Notes under the pieces: model-generated
Databases searched by the model: none
Seen by the model: only the letters and a program-made list of their open reading frames with translations
Told to the model about the DNA's origin: nothing
In this document: positions 48,074 through 64,000 of the stretch, in pieces
Layout: every line of letters begins with the position of its first letter
How positions within the stretch are numbered: position 1 is the first letter of the stretch
Translations under genes and position numbers: made by a program
Origin: Chloroflexota bacterium
GTDB lineage: Bacteria; Chloroflexota; UBA11872; VXOZ01
Length of the DNA stretch: 64,000 bases
NCBI GenBank assembly: GCA_964291655.2
Contig: OZ219802.1
Span: forward strand, 800,001 to 864,000
Direction of reading: 5' to 3'

Positions 48074-49813
48074 CTAGCCGTTTTCCCCATTACCAGCGCC
48101 AGCAACGCCGCGGCAAAATGCCGTCGCCTCCCGGTCAAGCTCGCCATCAGGCGTTACTACGACCCCGTAGACTTCGCGGGCGCGTTCATGCGATACCTTC
48201 TCGTTGCGCACGTCCTCCAGTACCAATTGGGGATCCCGCTCCAGCGGATCGCCCCAGCCGCCGGCCCCGGAAACCATGTGCCGGAACAGATCGTTTTCAT
48301 AGATCGTCTCGGTCGCCTTGCTCGTTAGTACGCGAGCCTCCGTATCCGGATTGAGGATGTTCTTTGAAGGCGCGCCGTCATGACCGCCGGCCAGCCCGTA
48401 GGCGTGGTTTTTATGTCGATCCGAACGCAATTGCAACGTGGCGCGCCGCTCGCGCAGGCGATAGTCGCGTACGAGCGCCAGGCCGCCGCGAAACTTACCG
48501 GCGCCTTCGGAGTCCGGCACGTAGCCGTAGCGCTCGATGCGCAAGGGCAATTCCGCCTCCACCACTTCTACGGGGTTATTCGAGAAGTTTACGACGATGC
48601 TTGCCATGGCGTCAGTGCCGTCGCTCCAGGGCTTGCCTCCCCACGAGCCAAAGAGGAACTCCAGGTAGACAAACGGATTGCCGTCGTCGTCATAGCCGCC
48701 GATGCTTACGCCGGTATCGCCGCCAACTTCACACGCCGGTATGCGCTCCGGCGCCAGCTTGGCCAGCGCGCCCATCACGGCGTTAGCGGTCCGGTAGCCG
48801 GTGAGGCCCCGCGCCGCCACCGGCGCGGGCATGCTGGGATTGATGACCGAGCTCTTCGGCGCAATTACCTCGATGGGACGGAAGTACCCCTCATTATTTG
48901 GGATCTCTTCTCCCATTAAGCTGCGGACACAAGCATAGACCGCCGAGCGCGTAAACGGTATCGGCGAGTTGATGCCGCCGCGGACCTGGGGCGACGTACC
49001 GGCAAAGTCCACCGTCATCGAGTCGCCATGCACCTTCACGGTGACGGCGATGGGGATCGGACCTGGATCGAAGCCGTCGTCATCAATGTAGTCGGTGAAC
49101 GCGTATTCGCCGTCCGGCATATCGGCAATGGCCTGGCGCGCCAGCCTTTCCGTGTAGTCGAGCAGCGCGGAAAACCGCGCCTGGAGATCGTCGTGTCCGT
49201 AGCGCGCAAAGAGCGTCTCCACACGCCGCTCTCCCACGTGACAGGCGGAGAGTTGGGCGCGAAGATCGCCGAGCACCAGCCGCGGCACGCGCACGTTTGC
49301 CCGCATCAACTCAAAGACTGCATCGTTCGGTTCGCCGGCGGCATAAAGTTTGAGCGGTGGAATGCGGATGCCTTCCTGGAAGATCTCGGTGGCGTCGCAG
49401 CCGTTGCCGCCTGCCACCATGCCGCCTACGTCCGCGTGGTGGGCGATGGAAACCAGGTAACAGGCAAGCACGCCATCCAGGAATACCGGCTTGAAAATAT
49501 AGATGTCCGGCAGGTGCGTACCTCCGGCATAGGGATCGTTGAGCATGTACACGTCGCCGGGCTGCACGTCATCGCCAAACGTCGCAAAGACGCTCTCAAT
49601 CGCATGGGGCACAGACCCAAGGTGCAGGGGAAGTGTTAAACCCTGGGCGATAAGCTCCCCGCTGGGCTGGCAGAGCGCGGTCGAAAAGTCCATGCTGTTC
49701 TTGAGATTATTCGAATACGCCGTGCGCAGTACTGTCATCGCCATCTCATCAACGAGCGATTCCAACGCGTTCTTGAGGATTTCCGTTTCTACCGGGTCGA
49801 ATTCTCGGCTCAC
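48074..49813 (-). CDS. Hydantoinase B/oxoprolinase family subunit
   Basis: LRTAYS, MDFSTAL, LHLGS, NDPYAGGTHLPD, HHADVGG, QEGIRIPP, GAGGWGDP. Confidence 0.93.
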   Translation of the reverse strand: MSREFDPVETEILKNALESLVDEMAMTVLRTAYSNNLKNSMDFSTALCQPSGELIAQGLTLPLHLGSVPHAIESVFATFGDDVQPGDVYMLNDPYAGGTHLPDIYIFKPVFLDGVLACYLVSIAHHADVGGMVAGGNGCDATEIFQEGIRIPPLKLYAAGEPNDAVFELMRANVRVPRLVLGDLRAQLSACHVGERRVETLFARYGHDDLQARFSALLDYTERLARQAIADMPDGEYAFTDYIDDDGFDPGPIPIAVTVKVHGDSMTVDFAGTSPQVRGGINSPIPFTRSAVYACVRSLMGEEIPNNEGYFRPIEVIAPKSSVINPSMPAPVAARGLTGYRTANAVMGALAKLAPERIPACEVGGDTGVSIGGYDDDGNPFVYLEFLFGSWGGKPWSDGTDAMASIVVNFSNNPVEVVEAELPLRIERYGYVPDSEGAGKFRGGLALVRDYRLRERRATLQLRSDRHKNHAYGLAGGHDGAPSKNILNPDTEARVLTSKATETIYENDLFRHMVSGAGGWGDPLERDPQLVLEDVRNEKVSHERAREVYGVVVTPDGELDREATAFCRGVAGAGNGENG

Positions 49814-51903
49814 GGCTGCTCCTCTCCTAAAGTAATCACCACGTTATCCCACGCATCTCGCTTTACGGTGCAGTGGGGTGGCACCAGCACGGTGGTGTCG
49901 TATTCCTCGATGATCAAAGGTCCCGGTTGATCCTCTGTGCCAATATCCTCGCGTGCGAGCAACGGCACAGTCCGCATGCCAATTGCAGCGCCAAAGTATG
50001 CTGAACGCTCTTTGGGGCCGTCGAGAGATCTCTTTCCGGTCGATGACCCTCCCCACTGGTGCGCTCCCTCGCGCGGCAGCGTTGCTTCTACCCGTAAATT
50101 GACAAGCTCCACGGGATCATCCGGGGCCTTGTGCCCGTATGTGCGCTCGTGTTCACGCTCAAACGCCTCCCGCATCAGCGCTGGAATTGACTCCTGCAGT
50201 GGGATGGTGAGTTCGAATGACTGGCCCGCATACCGTAGGTCCGCGAAGCGTTGCCACTCGCCATCTTGCCGCGCACCGCTGCCCTCACCAAGCTCGGCGG
50301 CCAATCGAGACTCAAGCGCGAGATATTGCCGGTCGATCTCGTCCTGGCTCACCGCATCAAGCGGCAGCAGCACGGTCTGCACGGCGTGCTGGGAAACATC
50401 AACGCACAAGAGGCCTAATGAGCTAAATAGTCCCGGAAACGGCGGCACTACAACCTGCTGTACTCCGAGCTCCCGTGCCATTTCAACGGCATGTAGCGGG
50501 CCGCTGCCGCCAAAGGCAAACAGTATGAAGTCAGCGGGAGAGCGTCCGCGTTCTACGGTCACCGCACGTACGGCACGGCTCATGTGAGAGACCGCAATAC
50601 GGTGGATGCCATGCGCCGAATCTTCCACACTCAGGCCCAGTGGCTCCGCCAGCCGCTTCTCGAGTACAGAGCGTGCGCGGGATGCATCAATCGGCAGTTC
50701 GCCACCCAGAAAGTGCGTAGGGTTTAAGAAACCAAGCGCAACATTGGCGTCCGTGAGTGTTGGTTCTTCTCCGCCAAGGGAGTAACACACGGGGCCTGGT
50801 TCGGCGCCCGCGCTGTGCGGGCCGACGCGGAGCCCGCCGGCCGGGTCTATCCACGCGATACTGCCGCCGCCGGCGCCGACTTCCGCAATGTCTATGGCCG
50901 GCACCCGCAGTGCATAGCCCGCACCGCGTTGCAGGCGCGCGCTCAGGCTAATGCCGCCGCCGACCTCGTAGTCGTTCGTGCGAGTGATACGTCCGTCCTC
51001 AATCACTGAGGCCTTGGCCGTCGTGCCGCCCATGTCGAGGGTGATTGCGTTGGCGGCACCCATTGCGTTCGCGAGCGAGAGCGCGCCCATCACTCCGGCA
51101 GCGGGACCGGACTCGATCACGTGAATTGGCTGCTCCGCAGCCTTGGCGGCGCCCATCATGCCCCCCGCGGACTGCATCATGTAAACCGGCGCAGTGATGC
51201 GCCGTTCATCGAGAGACTCATGGAGGCGATTGAGATACGAGCGCATGACGGGAGCAATGTACGCGTTGATTACCGTCGTGCTGGTCCGCTCATACTCGCG
51301 AATTTCCGGGAGGACATGCGACGAAAGAGAAACGAACACGTCGGGAGCCGCAGCGTGGAGCAGCGCGCCGATGCGTTCTTCGTGTGCCGGATTGCGGTAG
51401 GCATTGATGAGGCACACCGCAATCGAACGCACACCAGCCTTCAGCAAGTGTGCTATCGCGGCGTGGACACTATCTTCGTCGAGTTCTTGCACCACGTTGC
51501 CCAGCGTGTCCAAGCGCTCGATGACTTCCCGGCGCAGCGCGCGCGGTACCAGCGGCTGCGGCGGTTCCCAGTGCAGGTCGTAGAGACGGGGCATGCGCAA
51601 GCGCCGGATCTCCAGCACGTCGCGAAAGCCCGCAGTGGTAATGAGACCTGTGAGCGCGCCTTTGCCCTCCAGAATGGCATTGGTTGCCACCGTCGTAGCG
51701 TGGATGACCTCGGCAATGTCGGCGCTCTCGGCATTCGTATCGTGAATGAGCGAATCAAGTCCCCGGACTATGCCTTGCGCAAAGTCGTCGGCGGTGGATG
51801 ATACCTTAGTCCATGCCCGCAGCCCCTGCGAGTCCATGAAGACAAGGTCGGTGAAGGTACCCCCAATGTCTACACCGACACGCAAAGATGAGTCCACAAG
51901 CAT
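49810..51903 (-). CDS. Hydantoinase A/oxoprolinase family subunit
   Basis: [51 protein letters not shown]. Confidence 0.94.
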
Positions 51904-51906
51904 CGC

Positions 51907-52650
51907 CTAGATGGTCACAGGCACAGGCTGCGCCGCGGGGGAAAGCTCGAAAAGCTTGCCGTAGCCGGGTATCGCCGCAGTATGGCCCAACGCACGCAGG
52001 CACTGCCAGTACGTCGCCTGGTTGCTCGTTACAACCGGAATGCCCAGGTCTTCTTCAAGGGCCTGGATGACGTCCATGGTACGGAGATTGGTACAACTAA
52101 TGAAAAGCGCGTCGGCACTCTCTGCCACGTGATCGCGGGCAAAGCGGTAGGTTTCCTCCAGGGGAACAACGCCGATGTCGAACGCCGTCAGAATGCTCAT
52201 GCCGGACTGGCTGACCACGTCGAAGCCCCAATCCTGCAGGAACTTGACCTCAAGGTCATTCAATTCAGGAATGTACGGAGTGACCATGGCAACGCGCTGT
52301 GCGTCTAGAGCGCGCAGGGCCCCCGCGACCGCGCCGGCAGTAGTCACTGCCTCGATATTGCTGCCGCCCCGCAACCGTTCGCGCAATGCCTCTTCACCGT
52401 CAGCGCCCTCGAAGAAACTGCCTGCGGTGCAGGCAAACGCGATTGCGTCGACGTTCGCGCTGAGCAACTCATCAACGCCGCGATCGACGTGCGCGCACAT
52501 CTGCGCCATGTCGTCCGCATCCGAGCGGGAATTGCGCATGCGAGTGGCATAAACGGCAAAGCCGTCAGGCAGCAATGCGCAACCTTCCGGCTCCACCACC
52601 GTGTTTACCGACGGTACAAGCAGACCGATGCGTCCACGCCATCCAAACAT
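51907..52650 (-). CDS. Maleate cis-trans isomerase / arylmalonate decarboxylase (Asp/Glu racemase superfamily)
   Basis: RIGLLVPSVN, FACTAGS, VTPY, ISCTNL, VTSNQA (both catalytic Cys). Confidence 0.88.
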   Translation of the reverse strand: MFGWRGRIGLLVPSVNTVVEPEGCALLPDGFAVYATRMRNSRSDADDMAQMCAHVDRGVDELLSANVDAIAFACTAGSFFEGADGEEALRERLRGGSNIEAVTTAGAVAGALRALDAQRVAMVTPYIPELNDLEVKFLQDWGFDVVSQSGMSILTAFDIGVVPLEETYRFARDHVAESADALFISCTNLRTMDVIQALEEDLGIPVVTSNQATYWQCLRALGHTAAIPGYGKLFELSPAAQPVPVTI

Positions 52651-53122
52651 GCCAACTCCTCCATTCAATTGGTTCTTTGACGCCTTCAAAGGCTAAGAAC
52701 TCGCGTTAGACTCAGTTCATTGAAGCAAGAAAAAGCGTGTGCACGACATGCCACTCACCAGGAATGCTGTTTGAGCATCATCTACCGCACTCCGCCTGTC
52801 TTTCGCTCTCCCTGAGCGCATTTGCTACACCGATGATAGCGCAGCAAACTTGCCAAAACAACCTGTGTTGCTAAGCTTCGGTTGTCGCTAGCTTTCATGC
52901 ACCATACAATACGTAACGGATGCCAGGCTGTGGACGCGTGCTAACAGGCCACGCAGACGCGTAAGAGTACGGCCGCACTCTCCTGGCACCCATGCTGCTT
53001 TGGGCGAATCTTCTCCTTCTCCTTGGGGAGAGGGCCGGAGTGAGGGGGACGTTTACTGAGTCCCGGCCAAACTCCTCCAGCCAAACTCACTTTTGCAAGG
53101 GAAACTAAAGGATAGAATCCGG

Positions 53123-54418: not shown

Positions 54419-55582
54419 GTGGCACCCCCAAGCTCCGCGCAGGCAGTAGCCAACCGAATATTGGAATTGACCCCATCCCCTACCATGGCCATGGATGCCA
54501 AGGCCAAAGCCATGGTGCGGTCTGGCATTGATGTCATCAATCTCTCTGTGGGCGAACCGGATTTTGATACGCCGGAACACATCAAAGCGGCTGCCATAGC
54601 CGCGATCCAGGATGGATTCAACAAATACACCCCGGCCGGCGGCATCCCTGAACTCAAAGAGGCCATTGCCGAGAAGCTCTCCCGGGAAAACGGTGTTGAC
54701 TATAGCCCAAGTGAGGTGGTTGCCTGCGTCGGCGGCAAGCAGGCCGTGTGCAACGTCTTTCTCGCGATCTGCGATCCCGGCGATGAGGTTATCGTGCACG
54801 CGCCGACCTGGCCGACCTTCCTCGAGCAAGTCAAACTGGCGCAAGGTGAGCCGGTCACCGTGCCGCTTCATTCGCCCTTCTCGATTACGGCGGACCCACT
54901 GCTCGAGCGCATCACCCCCAAGACCCGGGCCATTCTCCTCAACTCGCCGTGCAACCCCACCGGCGAGGTAGCTGATCCTGCGGAGATCCGCAAACTGGCC
55001 GAAGCATGCGTGGAACGGGGCATCTACTTCATCGCGGACGAGACCTACGAGCACTTTCTCTACGGCGATACTGAGCACCTGTCGCCCGCCTCAATGGGAC
55101 CGGACGAGAAAGCCCACGTAATCACCGTAAATACCGTATCGAAGACGTACGCCATGACCGGCTGGCGCTTGGGCTACGTGGCCGGGCCGGAACCGGTGGT
55201 CAAGGCGATCAACGACCTGATGACACAGATCACGAGTAATCCGACGGCTGCCGCCCAAAAGGCCGCCATTGCCGCCCTCACCGGACCGCAAGACTGCGTG
55301 CGGGAGATGGTCGCTGAGTTTAGCGCCCGTCGCACATTGCTTGTAGAAGGGCTGCGCTCAATTGGCTATACCTGCTCGCTGCCGGGCGGCGCATTCTACG
55401 CTTTCCCGCAAGTCAGAGGGGATGAAGAAGACATGGCGGTTGCCGACCGCCTCTTGGAAGAAGCCCACGTCGCCACCGTGCCGGGGTCGTCGTTCCTCGC
55501 CGACGGCCACCTGCGCATGTCGTACGCCACCAGCCGCGAGAAGCTGCAGGAAGCCCTCGAACGGCTGCGAAAGCTAATGTAA
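54419..55582 (+). CDS. Class I/II PLP aminotransferase (aspartate aminotransferase-like)
   Basis: GEPDF, YTPAGGIPELK, NSPCNPTG, DETY, SKTYAMTGWRLGY. Confidence 0.93.
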   Translation: MAPPSSAQAVANRILELTPSPTMAMDAKAKAMVRSGIDVINLSVGEPDFDTPEHIKAAAIAAIQDGFNKYTPAGGIPELKEAIAEKLSRENGVDYSPSEVVACVGGKQAVCNVFLAICDPGDEVIVHAPTWPTFLEQVKLAQGEPVTVPLHSPFSITADPLLERITPKTRAILLNSPCNPTGEVADPAEIRKLAEACVERGIYFIADETYEHFLYGDTEHLSPASMGPDEKAHVITVNTVSKTYAMTGWRLGYVAGPEPVVKAINDLMTQITSNPTAAAQKAAIAALTGPQDCVREMVAEFSARRTLLVEGLRSIGYTCSLPGGAFYAFPQVRGDEEDMAVADRLLEEAHVATVPGSSFLADGHLRMSYATSREKLQEALERLRKLM

Positions 55583-55599
55583 GCGAATGGCATAGCGAG

Positions 55600-55855
55600 C
55601 AATGCTCCTGCGTCCCAAGGATTGCGGTCGGTCGCTTGGACAGCTTCAAGATCAGGTGCTCCCGTGCTGATGGCGGCTTATCGGCCGAATAGCGCACGAG
55701 CAAATGGAAGAGCTTCCAGGCGGATGTTGGCTCGGGAGACGAGACTGCGGACGTCGGTCATGTGGCCGTGAGGGAGCTGCCCACCTTGGAGGAGGACGCT
55801 AGTCAACCATTCAGGAGTGGTCTGCTCCGGGATGGTGAGTAGTTGGGAGATCGTA
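55600..55855 (-). pseudogene. Possible frameshifted N-terminal remnant of an APH/choline-kinase-like phosphotransferase
   Basis: Fragments 'IPEQTTPEWLTSVLLQGGQLPHGHMTDV' and, in another frame, 'HLLVRYSADKPPSAREHLILKLSK' resemble such N-termini; recalled similarity only. Confidence 0.35.
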
Positions 55856-56427
55856 GCTGTTTCCCCCCGGAAGGTCGTCGTAGCGCCTCAGTACATGAGG
55901 TGCCGCCCCACCTGGTGGCTCTCAGCGGAGCATTCGTCCTGGGGGCCGAGTTGCCACAGAGCGCACAGCGAGGGGGCTGTCAGCATCAGGGGGATGCAGG
56001 ATGGGAGGATGAGCAGTATAGTGGAGATACCATCACGGCGGCGGAAGCCAAAGTCCAGGGGGCCGGGGCACGCTTCACCACACCCCGACACAAAAACCTA
56101 CCTCGCCATTCCCGCGCACGCAGGAATCCAGCGCCGTAGGGGTGTCTCTTGTGGGCGCCCTGGCTGCGGCCGGGGTCTGGGTCAATCACCTGGGTTGCCC
56201 CTGCAGCGGCGACACCTATCCGATGGAGGTGGCCGGGGAAGAGCACCGCTAGGCGAGAATGCACGTAGCACTTCAATTGACAGCAGCAAGGATGGTGCGT
56301 ACATTTTATGCCGCCCCGGAATGAGGTGTTTGCCTAGACATAGGGACATGTTTTCCGAGGAATGGGAGCAAGCCTTGATAGTAGGAGAGGAGCTCTGTCA
56401 TCTGCTTGCTGTGGCGCAGAAACCCGT

Positions 56428-57360
56428 ATGACTGATCCGGCAATCATTCGTGCCGCTTTGACTGCATATGGCCTTGATGGCGCCTCAATCGAGTTGCTGC
56501 AAGACTTCGTCAATGCGTCCTTTCGCGTCGCGGTTGGTGACCAGGCTTACTCTCTGCGCGTCTACGCACCGGATCGCCGTGAGCTCCCGGAAGTGGAGTC
56601 GGAAATGCGTTGGCTGGCAGCGGTTGCCGCGGACAGCGTGATTCCATGCCCCCGACCACTGCGTCTGGCGGATGGTCACTACGCTTGGGAAGCTCCCGGC
56701 GTATGCTTCGTGACCGTGGCCTCCTGGGTTGAAGGCGGCCTGATCCCCAATGCCGAACGGACACCGGCACACTTCGGGCTTGTCGGAGCAATGCTTGCAA
56801 AGCTCCACCTCTTCTCCGAGCGGTGGCAGGCGCCGGTCGGATTCACGCGACCACGCTGTGACGCCGACGGTATCTTCGCCGGGGATCGTCAGGAGCTCGA
56901 TGCCACGCTGAGGTGTGATCTGGCGCGAGCCCAGCAAGAACTGCGGCAGGCGGAGGATGCAATCGGCCGAGACGCCGCAGCTTACGGCCTCGTTCACGGC
57001 GATCCGAGCTTCAGCAACATCCTGTTCGACGTCGACCGGCCGGCCCTCATTGACTTTGACGACTGCGGTTTCGGACACTACGCCTTCGACCTCGCGGTGG
57101 TGCTGGCAGGGGCGTGGGGCAAGCCGAGGTACGCTGTAAATCGAGTCGCGCTTCTCGACGGTTACCAGGAGATCCGCAGACTATCGGAAGTGGAGCGCGC
57201 GGCTCTCCCCGCTCTGATGGCCGCGCGTGCAGCGTCCCTCATCTTCTGGGCCGCCGCCCAGTCAACACCTGAACACAACTGGATATCCGCCCAGTGGGAG
57301 CGGCTACGGGAGTACTTGGAAGGCGCGGCTCCAATGCCGCTCAATCCCCATCAGGAGTAG
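56428..57360 (+). CDS. APH-family phosphotransferase (homoserine kinase type II-like)
   Basis: LRVY, SEMRWL, LAKLH, GLVHGDPSFSNIL, IDFDDCGFG. Confidence 0.9.
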   Translation: MTDPAIIRAALTAYGLDGASIELLQDFVNASFRVAVGDQAYSLRVYAPDRRELPEVESEMRWLAAVAADSVIPCPRPLRLADGHYAWEAPGVCFVTVASWVEGGLIPNAERTPAHFGLVGAMLAKLHLFSERWQAPVGFTRPRCDADGIFAGDRQELDATLRCDLARAQQELRQAEDAIGRDAAAYGLVHGDPSFSNILFDVDRPALIDFDDCGFGHYAFDLAVVLAGAWGKPRYAVNRVALLDGYQEIRRLSEVERAALPALMAARAASLIFWAAAQSTPEHNWISAQWERLREYLEGAAPMPLNPHQE

Positions 57361-57454
57361 CGCGGGGGCTTGTCCCCCACCTCCTGGCATGAGAGGCTAT
57401 GTCCGAAACCGCCTGTTTCTTTAAGCATAAACACGCTGGAAGTGGAGGCAAACC

Positions 57455-58594
57455 ATGAAGATCAGCGACGTCCAAACCCATATTGTAAGTGGCGGCACGC
57501 GCAACTACACATTCGTCACCGTCACCGAGGAGAACGGCCTCTACGGCATTGGCGAGTCCGGCTGCTCCGGCAAGGACAAGGCCGTGGCGGCGGCCGTGGA
57601 GCACTACCGGCCGCTGCTCATCGGCCAGGACCCCGCGCGCATCGAGCACATCTGGCAGGACCACTTTCGCGGCAACTTCTGGCGGGCGGGCCCGGTGCTC
57701 ACAGCGGCCATTTCGGCCCTCGACATCGCCCTCTGGGACTTGCTTGGCAAGGCCCTCGAGGTGCCAACCTACCAACTGCTCGGCGGCAAGACCCGCGACA
57801 AAGTGCGTTGTTACGCCCATTTTGGCGGCGGGACCGACAGCCCGGAGTCTTTTGCGCAGTCCGCGCAAGCGCGCGTGGATGAAGGCTTCGAAGTGGTGCG
57901 GTTCGGCCTGCCGACCGATCCGGGCGACATTCTGGAACCGGCGCGGGCAGTGTGCAATGCGGTGGAAGCCTTCCAAGCCGTGCGTGAGACCGTGGGGCAT
58001 GAGATTGAAATCGCCCTCGACGTGCATACGCGCCTCAACCCGACGTGGGCAATCCAGTTATGTAAACGACTTGAGCCGCTCCGTCCCTTCTTCATCGAAG
58101 ACCCCATTCGCTCGGAGAACCCGCAATCATTCGCTAATTTGCGCCACCACACCAGCGTGCCCATCGCCACCGGCGAGCAGCTTATCACCAAGTGGCAGTT
58201 CCGCGAGCTCATCGAGAACGAACTGATCGACTACATGCGCGCCGACCTCGGTCTTGTCGGTGGAATCACTGAAGGCAAGAAGATCGCCGCTATGAGCGAG
58301 GTGCACTACATCGACTCGGCTCTGCACAATCCGCTGGGCCCTGTGAACACCGCCGCCAGCGTGCAGCTTGATATGTGCATTCCCAACTTCGGCATTCAGG
58401 AACTTTCCATGGTTCCACCGGCCATGACCGACATCTTCCCCACCCAGTGCCGTGTGGAGGCCGGACACCTCTATCCCGCCGACGTGCCTGGGATTGGCAT
58501 CGAGTTCAACGCCGAGGCAGCAAAACAGTACCCGTATCAGTACTGGGAACACGCCCGGCTACACCGGGACGACGGTTCACTCACAGACTGGTAA
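57455..58594 (+). CDS. Mandelate racemase/MLE family acid-sugar dehydratase (galactonate dehydratase-like)
   Basis: GIGE, AISALDIALWDL.GK, LLGG, LDVH, FIEDP, ATGEQ, HNPLGP. Confidence 0.9.
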   Translation: MKISDVQTHIVSGGTRNYTFVTVTEENGLYGIGESGCSGKDKAVAAAVEHYRPLLIGQDPARIEHIWQDHFRGNFWRAGPVLTAAISALDIALWDLLGKALEVPTYQLLGGKTRDKVRCYAHFGGGTDSPESFAQSAQARVDEGFEVVRFGLPTDPGDILEPARAVCNAVEAFQAVRETVGHEIEIALDVHTRLNPTWAIQLCKRLEPLRPFFIEDPIRSENPQSFANLRHHTSVPIATGEQLITKWQFRELIENELIDYMRADLGLVGGITEGKKIAAMSEVHYIDSALHNPLGPVNTAASVQLDMCIPNFGIQELSMVPPAMTDIFPTQCRVEAGHLYPADVPGIGIEFNAEAAKQYPYQYWEHARLHRDDGSLTDW

Positions 58595-58648
58595 AGCAAG
58601 GGAGCGAACGTACGCAGCCTATCTCGGAAGAACAGCCGATAAGGACCG

Positions 58649-59668
58649 CTATCCGTTGGCTACTACGATTTCAGCGCCTGCACGTACATGGCACGTGAAG
58701 CGCACACGCCCTTCACCGGCCGCAGTGACATTTGCAATGCCATCCGGCCCTTGAATGTGCACGGGTCCAGGATCTTCAGCAAAGGAGACGAGAAACGTCA
58801 GCTCACCCTTCTCAATCTGCAGCGGCAGTTGCGGGAAATCCAGCGTGATGGTGGCATGGGTATCCGAATCCTGCGTGACCGCTGGCGCGCAGTGGCGCCG
58901 CAGGTAGGCATAGCGCACGACGTCGTCCGGATTCGCGGCCCACATGTTGGCGCCAAAATGCGTCCGCATTTGGTCGAAACGCCCCTCCAGCGCGTAGGGC
59001 GAGATGCACTTGTGTCCCTGCGGCGTCTTGTACATGACCAGGTGCGTGACATCCACCAGCCACTTGCCCTGCACGCGCTCCGGTTCGAACCCGCCGCGCG
59101 AGAGCCACGGAGGCAGGTATGCTATGGCGTCGTCCTCGCACAGGCGGTTGCGCCAGATGCTGAACGGATCGAAGTCCGGCTGGTTTACATGTTCCGCGTC
59201 GTTGGAGGCGCGTGTCAGACCGAGATAGCCCGGCACGCGTTGCACCCACGCCCGCACCGTGTCGTAGACCTCGAAGCTATTCCACGATGAGAAGATCGGC
59301 GCCGGCTGTCCCAGCGCCTGTTCCAGGATGCGGTAGGACTCCACGATCTCCTGTGCAAAATCGATGCTGTCCGGTTCGCGCAACGGCGGATGGCAATAGC
59401 TGTGGTTGCTGATGCTCCAACCCTGCGACAGAAGAAACTTGAGGTGGTCCGGCCCCATGTGGAAAAAGTCGTTGAGGGAACTGCGCTCGACGTGGCGCTT
59501 TTCTCCCAGTTGCCCGGCCACCACCGCCACGTCGCCGGGAATGTCGTACTGCTGCGCGAGGGGAAACGCGTTGGCCAAACAGTCGATGGTGCCCTCGTCA
59601 AAGACCACCGAGTAGACGAAGCTGGCGTCGTCTTTCCAGGGGGCCACCTCTACGGACGAAATCCTCAT
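58649..59668 (-). CDS. Polysaccharide deacetylase (NodB)-like protein with C-terminal beta domain
   Basis: SVVFDEG (cf. TFDDG), GWSISNHSYCHP; start ATG 59668 behind AGGAG. Confidence 0.7.
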   Translation of the reverse strand: MRISSVEVAPWKDDASFVYSVVFDEGTIDCLANAFPLAQQYDIPGDVAVVAGQLGEKRHVERSSLNDFFHMGPDHLKFLLSQGWSISNHSYCHPPLREPDSIDFAQEIVESYRILEQALGQPAPIFSSWNSFEVYDTVRAWVQRVPGYLGLTRASNDAEHVNQPDFDPFSIWRNRLCEDDAIAYLPPWLSRGGFEPERVQGKWLVDVTHLVMYKTPQGHKCISPYALEGRFDQMRTHFGANMWAANPDDVVRYAYLRRHCAPAVTQDSDTHATITLDFPQLPLQIEKGELTFLVSFAEDPGPVHIQGPDGIANVTAAGEGRVRFTCHVRAGAEIVVANG

Positions 59669-59923
59669 CGCAACTCCTTCTCGCCATGAACTTCGTGGCT
59701 CTGACGGCATACAGCGAGCGTGGGCTCAGCACAGCTTGCTGTCACTACTATGAGAGTAGCCGCTACAGACGGTCTTGTTCCGGTAGCGTAGGTTTGCAAC
59801 CTGCGCTCGCTGCCCAAATGCCGGAAGTATACTAACTCTTACCCGAACCCGCTTTGGGACGGAATTCACTGCTACCCACGCTGCCTGGACTCCGGCTTTC
59901 GCCGTCCTACGCGTCTTCCAAGA

Positions 59924-61264
59924 CTAAGATATCCGCGCCGAGTCGTAGACGCCCGCCATGCCCAGATCCAGCGGGTTTACCTGCACCCAGACCTCTTCCG
60001 GCTGCGCGTCGTCTTTCAACTCCAGCGAGACCGAGACCCGCTCCAGACCAGGCACCGGCGCAATGCAATGCCCAATTTGCCGCCGGATCAGGATGTTCGA
60101 CTCCTCGCGGGTGGCATCGGCGTCGGCAGCAGTTTTCGGGTCGCCGTTGAATGCCACTGCAAGCATCCGAGTGACATCGAATGCGCCGGTATTCTCCACT
60201 ACGATATCAGCTAGCAGCCGTCCATCTTCCCGGCGTACGCGTGATGCCTCCGTGTCAATGCGCAATCCCGCCGAAAGCTCGCCTGGTGTGAGCGAGACCG
60301 CCCGGTAGGCATCGAAGATGCCATGTCCAAGCAACGGTTCCCAGCCGGATCCCTGCGACGTATTGCGCAGAATCTGTCGAATCTCCACGTTGGAAAGGTG
60401 CGGATAGCGCGAGAACGCCAGCGCCGCGACGCCGCCGCCAAAGGCGGACGCCATGCACCCGCCCTCGAAGGGAATGTAGTCGAGGTCGCCGCCGGTTCCC
60501 CAAACTGACTCGGTGGGGTCGTCCGTATAGCGTTCGCCGCCGGGTGTGGCCGCCTCCACGTAATCCGCCGATGCCGCGATGTTCGCTGCTTGACCGTGCC
60601 GGTTCGTCGAACCGACGGCAAAGACGCTGTCAATGCCAGCATTCACGGTTGCTACCCGCCTACCGCGGTTGTCGGCCGTACCTTTGAAAACCAGGCAGCC
60701 CGATTGGTAGGCGTAGTCCAGCGCCTCGATCAGGCCGATATTGTCGTAGGGATAGCTGAAGTCGATGCCCTTGTAGAACAACGGGACGCCGTCCGTGTGG
60801 TCCATAGTGATGTAGCCATGGGGCATCACGAGCACCTTGGCGCCGTGATCGACCGCATAGCGTACGGCGCGTGGCCAGCTCTTCTGGTGATGCGGCTCGT
60901 AGCCCACGCGCAACACCATGATCGGGCACTTGGGCGCCGTCGCGGCTACTTCGCCCACGACAAACGCGTGGTGACCGCGATGATACATCGTGTCAGAGCG
61001 CGACCCCTCATATTCAAGCGTGGCGTCTTCCTCGGCAAAGTCCCAGCCGTGCACGTCGCCCCGCGTGGGCCGTGGATTGACCCACAGGTGACCCTCATGA
61101 TCGGGATGATAACGATAGCCCAGGTCTATCACCGCCACGATTACGTCAGGACTGCCCTGTGTGATGGCATGTGCTTCCGTCACACGCATCTGATCGAGCG
61201 CCCAGTCGTACGGCTCTCGCACGCCCTCCGGCAGCACGCCGCTCTGCTTCTCGGCTATGGCCAT
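59924..61264 (-). CDS. S8 subtilisin-fold protein with Cys at the nucleophile position
   Basis: VAVIDLG (Asp), RGHHAFVVGEV (His), TADN (oxyanion Asn), AVGS, PGG, EGGCMASAFGGGVAAL, LGHGIFDAYRAV; start ATG 61264 behind AGGAG. Confidence 0.85.
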   Translation of the reverse strand: MAIAEKQSGVLPEGVREPYDWALDQMRVTEAHAITQGSPDVIVAVIDLGYRYHPDHEGHLWVNPRPTRGDVHGWDFAEEDATLEYEGSRSDTMYHRGHHAFVVGEVAATAPKCPIMVLRVGYEPHHQKSWPRAVRYAVDHGAKVLVMPHGYITMDHTDGVPLFYKGIDFSYPYDNIGLIEALDYAYQSGCLVFKGTADNRGRRVATVNAGIDSVFAVGSTNRHGQAANIAASADYVEAATPGGERYTDDPTESVWGTGGDLDYIPFEGGCMASAFGGGVAALAFSRYPHLSNVEIRQILRNTSQGSGWEPLLGHGIFDAYRAVSLTPGELSAGLRIDTEASRVRREDGRLLADIVVENTGAFDVTRMLAVAFNGDPKTAADADATREESNILIRRQIGHCIAPVPGLERVSVSLELKDDAQPEEVWVQVNPLDLGMAGVYDSARIS

Positions 61265-61340
61265 GTGACTCTCCTTTTGCGTCTGTAGAACATCAAACAA
61301 GCACGTGTTCTTGGTGAATCCGATAGTGTCGCCATTGTCC

Positions 61341-61788
61341 GTCATTCCGGCGAAAGCCGGAATCCAGTCTTCACCGCGCACACCCGAGATACCGCCCCGC
61401 GATCAACGTTGCAAAGCCAAGCAATTCGCGGGAAGGGCGTATTGAGGTGATCTTCTCCTTGTAGCGCGGGGGCTTGTCCCCCGCTCTTGAGATTGAGCAC
61501 AAGGGCTGAAGACTCGGTGGTAAAGTGTGGTTGTAAGCAGGAGAAGATGGATTCCCGCTTTCGCGGGAATGACGGACGGCGCGCCCCTCATGTTGCCCTC
61601 TCACCTCCGCTCATCTATAGGCCATCTTCAACGTACATATGTCGGATGATGCCCCTCTCCCTGTCCTCTCTCCCTCACTTGTAGCCCTTTTTCAAACACT
61701 CAAAAAACGGTTAGAGAGCCGACCACACTTCGCATTCCTAACTCTGCCCAAACCAAGACCATGGTCATTCCGACTTTCGCCGGAATCC
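61341..61788. repeat. Cluster of GTCATTCC(C/G)GCGAAAGC(G/C)GGAATCC palindromic repeats
   Basis: Copies at 61341-61365, 61549-61573 (inverted) and 61764-61788; relatives at 8309-8358 and 56107-56129. Confidence 0.75.
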
Positions 61789-61799
61789 AGTCTTCTTGC

Positions 61800-62909
61800 T
61801 CACACAATAGCCACTTCCTGCGGGATCGTCCCCAACCGCTCGAATCCATCTTCCCTAAGCACGTACATGTCCTCCTCGAGCCACGAGGACTCCAGCGAAA
61901 CGACGTTGTTCTCCGCAAACAAGATTTCCGGCCGCACGTCAACGGCGGACGGCAGCAAGCTGCCGATCAACGGTTCTTCATGTTTATCCATGCCCACGCC
62001 GTGAATCCACCAGGCATATTCATCAATGCCCCTAAACTCACGCTGGCAAGCGTCAAAGACCTCTCGCTTAGTCTTGCCGGGCCGTACGAAGTCTTCCATA
62101 AAGAGCTGCCGCTCGCGGTGCTCCCGCCAGACCGCCAAGCTTTCCTTGCGCGGCGTGCCGACGCAGAAGTTGAACTTCTGGTCGGAAAAATAGCCGGCAG
62201 AGACTGCAGCAAGGTCGACACGGTAAACCAGACCCGCTTCAACGACACCGGGGCTACGAATCACGGCGGCGTTCGGTTGCTCCCGCGAGCTCGTACCGCC
62301 GTGGGGCAGCATCCACGAGACCGGCGACGTGTTGATGGGCAAGGCCCCGTTATCCAGCACCGCTTTGGCCCATACGGTCACGAGGTCTTGAAAGGACATG
62401 CCCTCGCGAACTTCCTGCAGCATCTCGCGATAACCGGCCTCCGAGGCGGCAATTGCCTTACGGAGCCACCGAATCTCCTCCGGCGTCTTGCACGCCCGCG
62501 CCTCGGCGAGCAACAAGTCGGCGGAAACAAACGTGGCCCCCGGCAGCAATTCCTCAAGCCTTCGCAGATCGCTCACCGCGGCAAATTCCATATCCAGACC
62601 GATGCGCGCCCGCGCCAGCCCCCGCTGGTGCATTTGACTTGCGAGTTCCGCCAGCCGCGCCGCACGGGCATGGTCGGGCCCTAAGCTGTCAACCGGCAAA
62701 TCTGAATTCCTAAGCCGACCGCCAAACGTAAACGACCGGCCGGGGGGAATGAGACACGTCATCCACGGCGCCAACCCCTGCGGCTCATTGAGCCACGGCC
62801 CTTCGCTGACCGCGCCCGCCAGGTACGCGCAGTTGCGCATGCCCAGCGTGACCAGCGCATCGAGCCGCTGCTCCGCCATTGACCTCGTTATGCCCGCAAT
62901 ATCAGCCAC
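61800..62909 (-). CDS. M24 family (Xaa-Pro peptidase/creatinase-like) metallopeptidase
   Basis: RACKTPEEI, VDL...GYFSD, HGVGMDKHEEP, SLE, EED. Confidence 0.85.
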   Translation of the reverse strand: MADIAGITRSMAEQRLDALVTLGMRNCAYLAGAVSEGPWLNEPQGLAPWMTCLIPPGRSFTFGGRLRNSDLPVDSLGPDHARAARLAELASQMHQRGLARARIGLDMEFAAVSDLRRLEELLPGATFVSADLLLAEARACKTPEEIRWLRKAIAASEAGYREMLQEVREGMSFQDLVTVWAKAVLDNGALPINTSPVSWMLPHGGTSSREQPNAAVIRSPGVVEAGLVYRVDLAAVSAGYFSDQKFNFCVGTPRKESLAVWREHRERQLFMEDFVRPGKTKREVFDACQREFRGIDEYAWWIHGVGMDKHEEPLIGSLLPSAVDVRPEILFAENNVVSLESSWLEEDMYVLREDGFERLGTIPQEVAIV

Positions 62910-63192: not shown

Positions 63193-64000
63193 CTAATTCA
63201 AGGTCTCCAACCAAATTGGGCTCGTCCACGCGCGATTGCCGTCCTGCTGCCGCACGCGCAGGTAGCAGTAGTGGACATCCATCGGTGAGTACCGCAGCGG
63301 CACCTCGTCCTCCAATTGCACGTGTTGCCGGCTGGGTGTGTAGCTTCTGACCGTGTCGCCATTCACAACCAGGTCGATCTGTTCGATGTCCGCCGTACCC
63401 ACCACGTCCGCCGTAAACGTGAATTGGCCTCCTTGCACCGTGGAACCTATCCAATTGTCGTTCACGCGAAAGTCAACGATCATGCGCACGCCGCTTGTCG
63501 CGTAGCAGCGCCGGTTGAAGAGCGCGTCGAAGATTGACGGCTTGTCTAACCGTTCCGCCCAGACGCCGGTGAGCCCGGCCACACCGGTCAGCGGCCCCGG
63601 TTCCTTGTAGGGATTGGCAGGCCGGCTGTCGTGGGTATCGCTTCCGCTCACGAAGCCGAGCTTCACGCCTTGCATCAGGTACTGATTAATCTTCTCCTCT
63701 TCCACCTCGCCGTCCGTTCTCTGCTTCTGAAATATCTCCGCCAGGTGTTCCTGGACGTAGAAGTGCGTATGGAAGTGACCGTGCATTAGCGCGCCCCGGC
63801 GCTTCATCTCGCGATAGAACTCTTGATAGTCGTTGCAGAAGACCGTATCCGGGTGAAAGCGCGCCTGGAGTTTCGGATCGTGTGCCGCGGGACGATCTTC
63901 GCAGAACACCGGCGGCTGTCCCACAATCTCCGGAAAGAAGGCATGGCGGTGGCTACCGTCGGGAGTGGTGCCGAATTCCGCCGAAGGCAGCGCGACGAAC
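63193..64000 (-). CDS. DUF3604/PHP-like metallohydrolase, 5' end outside the window
   Basis: GFVSGSDTH, GLTGVWAE, IFDAL..RRCYATSG, AWTSPIW; frame open to the window edge. Confidence 0.8.
   Translation of the reverse strand, partial: FVALPSAEFGTTPDGSHRHAFFPEIVGQPPVFCEDRPAAHDPKLQARFHPDTVFCNDYQEFYREMKRRGALMHGHFHTHFYVQEHLAEIFQKQRTDGEVEEEKINQYLMQGVKLGFVSGSDTHDSRPANPYKEPGPLTGVAGLTGVWAERLDKPSIFDALFNRRCYATSGVRMIVDFRVNDNWIGSTVQGGQFTFTADVVGTADIEQIDLVVNGDTVRSYTPSRQHVQLEDEVPLRYSPMDVHYCYLRVRQQDGNRAWTSPIWLETLN

Follow-up and report, generated by a model that had tools for sequence, protein, structure and literature searches.

Peptidases of clan SB (families S8 and S53) are regarded as purely serine-nucleophile enzymes. 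In subtilisin, exchanging the catalytic Ser for Cys nearly abolishes activity unless the P225A substitution makes room, and Ser-to-Cys subtilisins are so far known mainly from engineered peptide ligases. The acidic residue of the S8 triad is not fixed, as Siezen et al. (2007, Proteins) reportedly found in a Glu-His-Ser subfamily of subtilases, and the intracellular subtilisins (ISPs) of Bacillus are cytoplasmic S8 enzymes with a Ser nucleophile, a short N-terminal extension and no classical prodomain that act as general proteases. Here we describe a gene on the minus strand of a 64,000-nucleotide stretch of a Chloroflexota genome (contig OZ219802.1, positions 800,001 to 864,000; hereafter the window, to which all coordinates refer unless otherwise given). 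It encodes a subtilisin-fold protein of 446 amino acids (P0001, the S8-Cys protein) with a cysteine, Cys270, at the position of the catalytic Ser. In our preferred reading, to which we assign a probability of about 0.55, P0001 is a thiol-dependent amidohydrolase that uses Cys270 as its nucleophile in the catabolism of an N-acylated amino sugar or a related nitrogen compound.

The open reading frame starts with an ATG at 61264 and ends with a stop codon at 59924–59926. The features on which the argument draws are as follows.

59924..61264, minus strand: S8-Cys gene (P0001, 446 amino acids), including the stop codon (translation of the open reading frame, Pfam match)
61271..61276, minus strand: Shine–Dalgarno-like AAGGAG, with the ATG 6 nt further on (read from the sequence)
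61124..61126, minus strand: GAC codon of Asp47, equivalent of the catalytic Asp, in VIDLG (conservation and hhalign pairing)
60971..60973, minus strand: CAC codon of His98, equivalent of the catalytic His, in GHHAF (conservation; paired by hhalign with the first His of HGTH)
60668..60670, minus strand: AAC codon of Asn199, the oxyanion-hole Asn, followed by the Arg-rich loop R200-G-R202-R203 (conservation)
60455..60457, minus strand: TGC codon of Cys270, at the catalytic-Ser position, in GGCM (conservation, codon use, hhalign)
60443..60445, minus strand: GCC codon of Ala274, equivalent of the Pro (position 225 of subtilisin BPN') that is conserved in Ser subtilases (conservation, hhalign)
60746..60817, minus strand: family-specific insertion of about 20 residues (150–173), directly after PHG, the equivalent of SLG 125–127 (gap in the Ser-subtilase profile)
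59927..60265, minus strand: C-terminal beta-sandwich domain, residues 334–446 (AlphaFold2 (AF2) models)

By fold and by sequence P0001 is an S8 (clan SB) homologue, yet it is not a serine peptidase. The Pfam profile PF00082 (Peptidase_S8) matches it with an E value of 5.2e-14 (52.7 bits, cut-off 21.8), the alignment covering residues 40–315 and profile positions 3–288 of 288, and was found in all 62 family members scanned. The best matches among solved structures are thermitase (E 5.1e-11) and MycP1 (about 1e-9). A phmmer alignment with thermitase sets ‘feggCmasa’ over ‘lsgtSmatp’, with Cys270 above the catalytic Ser; because this alignment is unreliable around the His, we compared a family alignment of 117 sequences with one of 22 canonical Ser subtilases using hhalign (probability 100, E 7e-53). 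This profile–profile comparison pairs Asp47 with the catalytic Asp, His98 with the first His of HGTH, Asn199 with the oxyanion Asn, Cys270 with the catalytic Ser, residue 274 with the conserved Pro and PHG148–150 with SLG. The Asp-His-Asn order of S8 is thus kept, and where S8 peptidases have a Ser nucleophile in GTSxA, the P0001 family has Cys270 in GGCMA.

The substitution is a property of the whole family. A homologue search of 5.8 billion proteins returned 174 matches at E ≤ 1e-3, the best 120 of which are 47–87% identical to P0001 and bear only the names ‘S8 family serine peptidase’, ‘subtilisin family serine protease’ and ‘hypothetical protein’; the first of these, a pipeline name, is wrong as to the catalytic residue. 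In a MAFFT alignment of 121 sequences, Cys at position 270 and Asn at position 199 are present in every member, Asp at position 47 in 119 (the remaining two have gaps) and His at position 98 in 119, and the residues G268, G269, C270 and M271 do not vary. At position 274, 120 of the 121 have a small residue (Gly in 104, Ala in 11, Ser in 5) and one has Glu. Among species-representative genomes, 348 stretches encode relatives, of which the best 80 (79 loci) were kept; this sample was gathered partly through the GGCMA pattern and is biased accordingly, and in it GGCM occurs in 48 of 48 loci with at least 44% identity. One locus at 33% identity reads GGCMATPH, and the Ser motif (GTS or an equivalent) appears in 23 of 23 aligned loci at 25–30% identity. 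Of 49 open reading frames, 38 have TGC as the Cys codon and 11 have TGT; with both codons in use, Cys has been kept through synonymous change.

These results bear directly on the preliminary description of this DNA, which had read P0001 from its sequence as a natural Asp-His-Cys subtilase with its oxyanion Asn retained. The alignment, the tree described below and hhalign agree with that proposal and extend it to a clade. The motifs on which it rested (YIPFEGGCMASAFGGGVAAL, VIDLG, RGHHAF, TADN and MPHG) are all present in the translation; its codon positions (Cys270 TGC at 60457–60455, Ala274 GCC at 60445–60443) are correct; and hhalign bears out both its catalytic assignments and its view that MPHG stands in for the S1-lining SLG. 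Its worry that all close homologues might have Ser proved unfounded, GGCM being invariant in the family, and the invariant G269 upholds its suspicion that the T220G-type change reflects real remodelling. It had also asked for read support of the TGC codon. This is answered in part: contigs of two runs from one study are identical along the whole gene, although these are contigs only and the runs are possibly of the source sample. A contig from a separate study is 95% identical to the S8-Cys gene.

An AF2 model of P0001 (pLDDT 94.6, pTM 0.93) gives as its best Foldseek matches Bacillus lentus subtilisin (TMt 0.84, E 4e-19) and crystal structures of peptiligase and omniligase, with TMt of 0.82–0.84 and 21–23% identity. 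Asp47 lies at a strand end, and Cys270 starts the helix 270–286, as Ser221 does in subtilisin. The walls of the cleft differ from those of Ser subtilases: hhalign shows the 100–104 loop to be about three residues shorter, and the insertion after PHG conserves F163, G166, T167, D168 and F169, so the change affects both of the strands to which a substrate peptide would usually pair. In the loop that follows Asn199, R202 is invariant and R200 and R203 are each conserved in at least 90%; the S1 region is accordingly predicted to be strongly basic, with three conserved Arg after the oxyanion Asn. His99 and His149 are conserved around the active site together with Cys270.

The family N-terminus lies about 17 residues ahead of the canonical mature N-terminus, with no prodomain in the hhalign comparison, and a hydrophobic leader is lacking in 113 of the 121 members, P0001 included, in keeping with the earlier remark that it has neither signal peptide nor prodomain. 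The eight signal-peptide-like N-termini belong to P0074, P0075, P0089, P0103, P0115, P0117, P0118 and P0121, which are apparently of Planctomycete type; judging from these leaders, some family members are probably exported. Some of the leader-bearing members adjoin BNR/sialidase-like genes, and in them an LPEG/LPAG motif is conserved after the leader, its equivalent in P0001, GVLPEG, preceding the catalytic domain.

In the C-terminal beta-sandwich, Q396, H399 and G406 are invariant. Modelled alone (pLDDT 88.3), the domain has only generic Fn3/Ig-like fold matches (TMq 0.4–0.6), and no Pfam domain was found in the region of residues 334–446 in the 62 members scanned. A CARDB identity, for which the sole hint came from neighbour clusters in the ESM-Atlas (15% and 86% of their members), was rejected, as CARDB was undetected in all 62 at E ≤ 0.01 and the domain-only model is generic.

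Cysteine at this position extends beyond the family. When 1.84 billion cluster representatives were searched exhaustively with HMMER, 5,994 matched at E ≤ 1e-3, with 346 matches at 1e-10 and 30 at 1e-30. Among the best 150 of these, the full-length sequences just outside the family (30–37% identity), 12 in all, also have Cys: P0134, P0138, P0139, P0142, P0143, P0147, P0148, P0155, P0156, P0165, P0171 and P0216. Most of them keep the Pro four residues after the Cys, and in four of the 12 the catalytic Asp has given way to Glu. We also built a quick maximum-likelihood tree from 57 catalytic domains (346 columns, nucleophile column included, unrooted, SH-aLRT support), and in it the family is a single group of 14 rows (support 100). 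Together with the nine sister Cys sequences that were sufficiently full-length for inclusion and two degenerate rows, it forms a 25-row side (support 99), and all 32 Ser rows lie on the other side of that branch. The tree is consistent with, without proving, a single origin of the Cys.

The window genome itself encodes a second Cys subtilase of 467 amino acids, 32% identical to P0001, on another contig.

G000:C1:407085-408488 (L083:8086-9489), minus strand: second Cys subtilase, with a Glu-His-Asn-Cys pattern

Its motifs are VIEKG, DHGTH, GGNQ and GGCMAIGH. Cys is found in 27 of 27 relatives with at least 42% identity, and Glu in 25 of them, the other two being fragments; 90 more distant matches have Ser wherever the column is covered. 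Its neighbours encode two SBP_bac_1 solute-binding proteins, an M14-like protein, a glutamine-synthetase-like protein, a DAO protein and two GCV_T proteins. The M14-like protein shares 30% identity (E 5e-41) with that encoded beside the S8-Cys gene in locus L017.

The P0001 group is an unnamed bacterial family of subtilisin fold, widely but patchily distributed, with Cys always at the catalytic-Ser position. Carriers in the 31 non-redundant loci span at least nine phylum-level labels and include Verrucomicrobiota, Planctomycetota, Armatimonadota, Kiritimatiellia and sponge-associated Chloroflexota, and in a sample of the phylum of the window the family is confined to the nine genomes of the window's genus (9 of 301 genomes, 1 of 171 genera). 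Several genomes closely related to that of the window (loci L033–L038, from the same genomes as L003, L008, L013, L009 and L010) hold a second in-family paralogue (57–59% identity) in which His99 is Gly (HGAF or HGSF, not HHAF), a copy that is not present in the window genome. In L050/L051 and in P0138, P0139 and P0147, a sister Cys subtilase (GGCMATPH) forms the N-terminal domain of proteins of 1,172–1,479 amino acids with ConA-like/Laminin_G domains and weak matches to pectate lyase and GH127; these long forms link predicted thiol-subtilase domains to putative carbohydrate-active modules. Among proteins of 782–2,230 amino acids, no fused or longer form of the family itself was found at E ≤ 1e-30, which is weak evidence.

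No natural Cys-nucleophile S8 enzyme was found in a full-text literature search, with most subscription journals and MEROPS outside its scope. One close parallel is artificial. Subtiligase, peptiligase and omniligase (engineered BPN' with S221C and P225A or another small residue) share with the family the fold, the position of the Cys and a small residue four positions on, and P0001 itself has both Cys at the 221 equivalent and Ala in place of Pro at the 225 equivalent. The family differs from them in being natural and only 21–23% identical, in having Gly for Thr220 and Gly rather than Ala as the consensus at 274, and in its rebuilt cleft walls, Arg-rich loop, additional C-terminal beta-sandwich and catabolic operon context. 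The likeness to subtiligase drawn in the preliminary description therefore holds for the size of the residue at this position but not for its identity, and the idea that Cys needs the loss of Pro fails on the sister Cys lineages, which retain it. According to PMC7921005, small residues at 225 give space for the bulkier Cys. Because a natural clade pairs Cys with a small residue, evolution would seem to have reached the engineers' two-residue solution; the family mirrors, in nature and across a clade, the S221C plus small-225 design, and offers both a system in which to study the retuning of a Ser-protease scaffold to thiol catalysis and dozens of diverged natural templates on which peptide-ligase or thioester chemistry could draw.

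Thermitase (1THM), subtilisins and mycosins share the Asp-His-Asn-nucleophile order, whereas P0001 has Cys and lacks a signal peptide, prodomain and membrane anchor. The best NCBIfam model for P0001, the mycosin model TIGR03921, scores 99.2 bits against a cut-off of 278.75, so a mycosin identity was rejected as far below the equivalog threshold; no NCBIfam model covers the family. Like the ISPs, P0001 has a short N-terminal extension and no classical prodomain; unlike them, the family uses Cys, has an LPEG-like N-terminal motif in place of the ISP motif and lies in sugar/amine operons. The Glu-His-Ser subfamily keeps its Ser, the literature search having turned up no Cys variant of it, whereas the second family of the window genome combines Glu with Cys.

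The genomic context points to catabolism. Around P0001 the neighbours are:

58649..59710, minus strand: CE4-like gene of the polysaccharide-deacetylase family, 213 nt downstream (PF01522, E 1.2e-9)
61800..62909, minus strand: M24/creatinase-N family gene, upstream, with a 535-nt spacer before the S8-Cys gene
63193..63999, minus strand: DUF3604/CehA-McbA-type metallohydrolase gene, upstream, continuing past the window end

Across the 31 loci, neighbours within 6 kb were counted, and called adjacent when directly adjacent on the same strand:

GFO/IDH/MocA oxidoreductase: 16 loci, adjacent in 5
CE4-like deacetylase: 14 loci, adjacent in 12 (the most frequent direct neighbour)
DegT/DnrJ/EryC1 aminotransferase: 11 loci, adjacent in 1
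URO-D-like (MtaA/CmuA-like): 10 loci, adjacent in 8
AraC regulator: 8 loci, adjacency not counted
DUF3604: 7 loci, adjacent in none
BNR/sialidase-like: 4 loci, adjacent in 3
DAO: 3 loci, adjacent in 1
M14-like: 3 loci, adjacent in 3

The usual order is AraC, then DegT-GFO-S8C-CE4-UROD (S8C being the S8-Cys gene), with stop and start codons that often overlap and with variable flanks outside the DegT-to-UROD module. The AraC regulator, the deacetylase, the metallohydrolase and the dehydrogenase/aminotransferase pair together point to catabolic amide hydrolysis rather than peptide ligation. The family is a hitherto unannotated enzyme of an operon conserved across several phyla. Near the URO-D-like gene of one Clostridia-type locus lies a MetH-like gene with B12-binding and pterin-binding domains (L048:13-1197), which hints, from this single locus, at a possible role of the URO-D-like partner as corrinoid-dependent methyltransferase or demethylase.

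We propose the following mechanism for P0001. Cys270 would attack the substrate, served by His98 and Asp47 and with Asn199 as the oxyanion hole, and catalysis would proceed through a thioester acyl-enzyme; we infer covalent thioester catalysis because Cys, His, Asp and the oxyanion Asn are conserved together. The protein would be cytoplasmic and fold without a prodomain. The rebuilt cleft and the Arg loop suggest a small, anionic substrate and make a general endopeptidase unlikely, and an acyl or aminoacyl group would be cleaved or, less probably, transferred. The operon partners suggest that an N-substituted amino sugar, or an amine related to one, is catabolised, so that the substrate may be an N-acylated amino sugar, an aminocyclitol or a glycopeptide-like compound. 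The S8-Cys and CE4-like enzymes would take off N-acyl groups, and the DegT/GFO pair could convert the freed amine to a ketone and then to a hydroxyl.

Several observations weigh against this amidohydrolase reading. According to PMC7921005, chemically made thiol-subtilisin is drastically less active, so a Cys nucleophile does not automatically make a good amidase. In the AF2 model His98 lies within a helix drawn from residue 93 and not at the first turn of that helix, and the conserved His99, His149 and Cys270 could equally be a metal site. With signal-peptide-like N-termini in 8 of 121 members, the family does not appear to be uniformly cytoplasmic. The operon argument is one of guilt by association: the commonest partner occurs in just 16 of the 31 loci. 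Of the partners, the window locus has the CE4-like and DUF3604 genes alone; GFO, DegT and URO-D genes are absent nearby, and the DegT-like genes of the window are at least 14 kb from the S8-Cys gene.

Against an amidohydrolase we weighed, first, an ordinary intracellular protease that uses Cys for general or regulatory turnover, as the Bacillus ISPs use Ser, with its neighbours incidental. The S8 fold with a full triad and oxyanion Asn, the lack of signal peptide and prodomain, and the M24- and M14-like peptidase neighbours of some loci would all suit such an enzyme, but the remodelling of both peptide-binding walls, a conserved Arg-rich S1 region, the gene's tight linkage to sugar-modifying genes in different phyla and its patchy distribution in the phylum sample, as of an accessory gene, lead us to consider it unlikely.

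Slightly less credible is a natural transacylase or ligase, in which an amine rather than water would resolve the thioester and an amide bond would form. Dehydrogenase/aminotransferase pairs such as NtdC/NtdA and WbpB/WbpE install an amine on a sugar; the GFO and DegT pair, adjacent in many loci, could do the same, and the amino sugar they make could be the acceptor. An active site that joins Cys with a small residue at 274 fits this chemistry, and thioester intermediates favour aminolysis, according to PMC7921005. Set against this are the catabolic-looking context (AraC, CE4, DUF3604/CehA-McbA, DAO, M14- and M24-like peptidases), the Pro kept by the sister Cys lineages and the lack of any evident activated ester donor, and in the 12-kb loci no glycosyltransferase, nucleotide-sugar or ATP-grasp/non-ribosomal peptide synthetase genes were seen. 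We find it a touch more doubtful still that the family is specifically nature's own subtiligase, passing an acyl or aminoacyl group to the amine that the neighbouring dehydrogenase/aminotransferase pair generates. Were this reading true, the family would be the first natural case of a subtilisin-fold enzyme that forms amide bonds with a Cys nucleophile, and would give peptide-ligase engineering a ready scaffold.

A non-hydrolytic role, in which Cys270 with His98, His99 and His149 binds a metal or serves as a redox or sensor thiol, or in which P0001 is a pseudoenzyme scaffold for its CE4-like neighbour, seems improbable. Conserved His and Cys do cluster around the active site, P0137 and P0146 inside the Cys clade have degenerate triads, and pseudo-subtilases such as CspA and CspC exist, according to PMC7200643. 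However, Asp47 and Asn199 are as conserved as Cys270, which is expected for covalent catalysis and unneeded for a metal, and the G268–M271 motif is invariant. Finally, a sequencing error or a private Ser-to-Cys mutation in the window genome, raised because TGC differs from AGC and TCC by one base, is refuted by the conservation of Cys in all 121 proteins and all 48 closer loci, by the use of both Cys codons and by the presence of the gene on independent contigs.

The family's place among known defence systems was also considered: no PADLOC defence model matches P0001 at E ≤ 0.01, and a known anti-phage defence protease was excluded on this ground.

More widely in the window, a minus-strand run at 48074–52689 comprises genes for hydantoinase B, hydantoinase A and a protein of the arylmalonate-decarboxylase/Asp-Glu-hydantoin-racemase family, and 54419–58594 encodes an APH-family kinase, a class I/II aminotransferase and an enolase of the galactonate/mannonate-dehydratase family. 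By these family assignments, this neighbourhood is rich in the catabolism of amides and nitrogen compounds. A scan of 58500–62000 found four terminator-like sites, where 2.9 would be expected, and no promoter-like sites. Between the M24-like and S8-Cys genes, the 535-nt spacer contains three copies of a palindrome of about 30 nt (core ATTCCGGCGAAAGCCGGAAT) that resembles repetitive extragenic palindromic elements, at 61341–61372, 61548–61577 and 61764–61795; none is expected by chance, and the copies produce odd pseudo-open reading frames of the ‘IPAFAGMT’ type.

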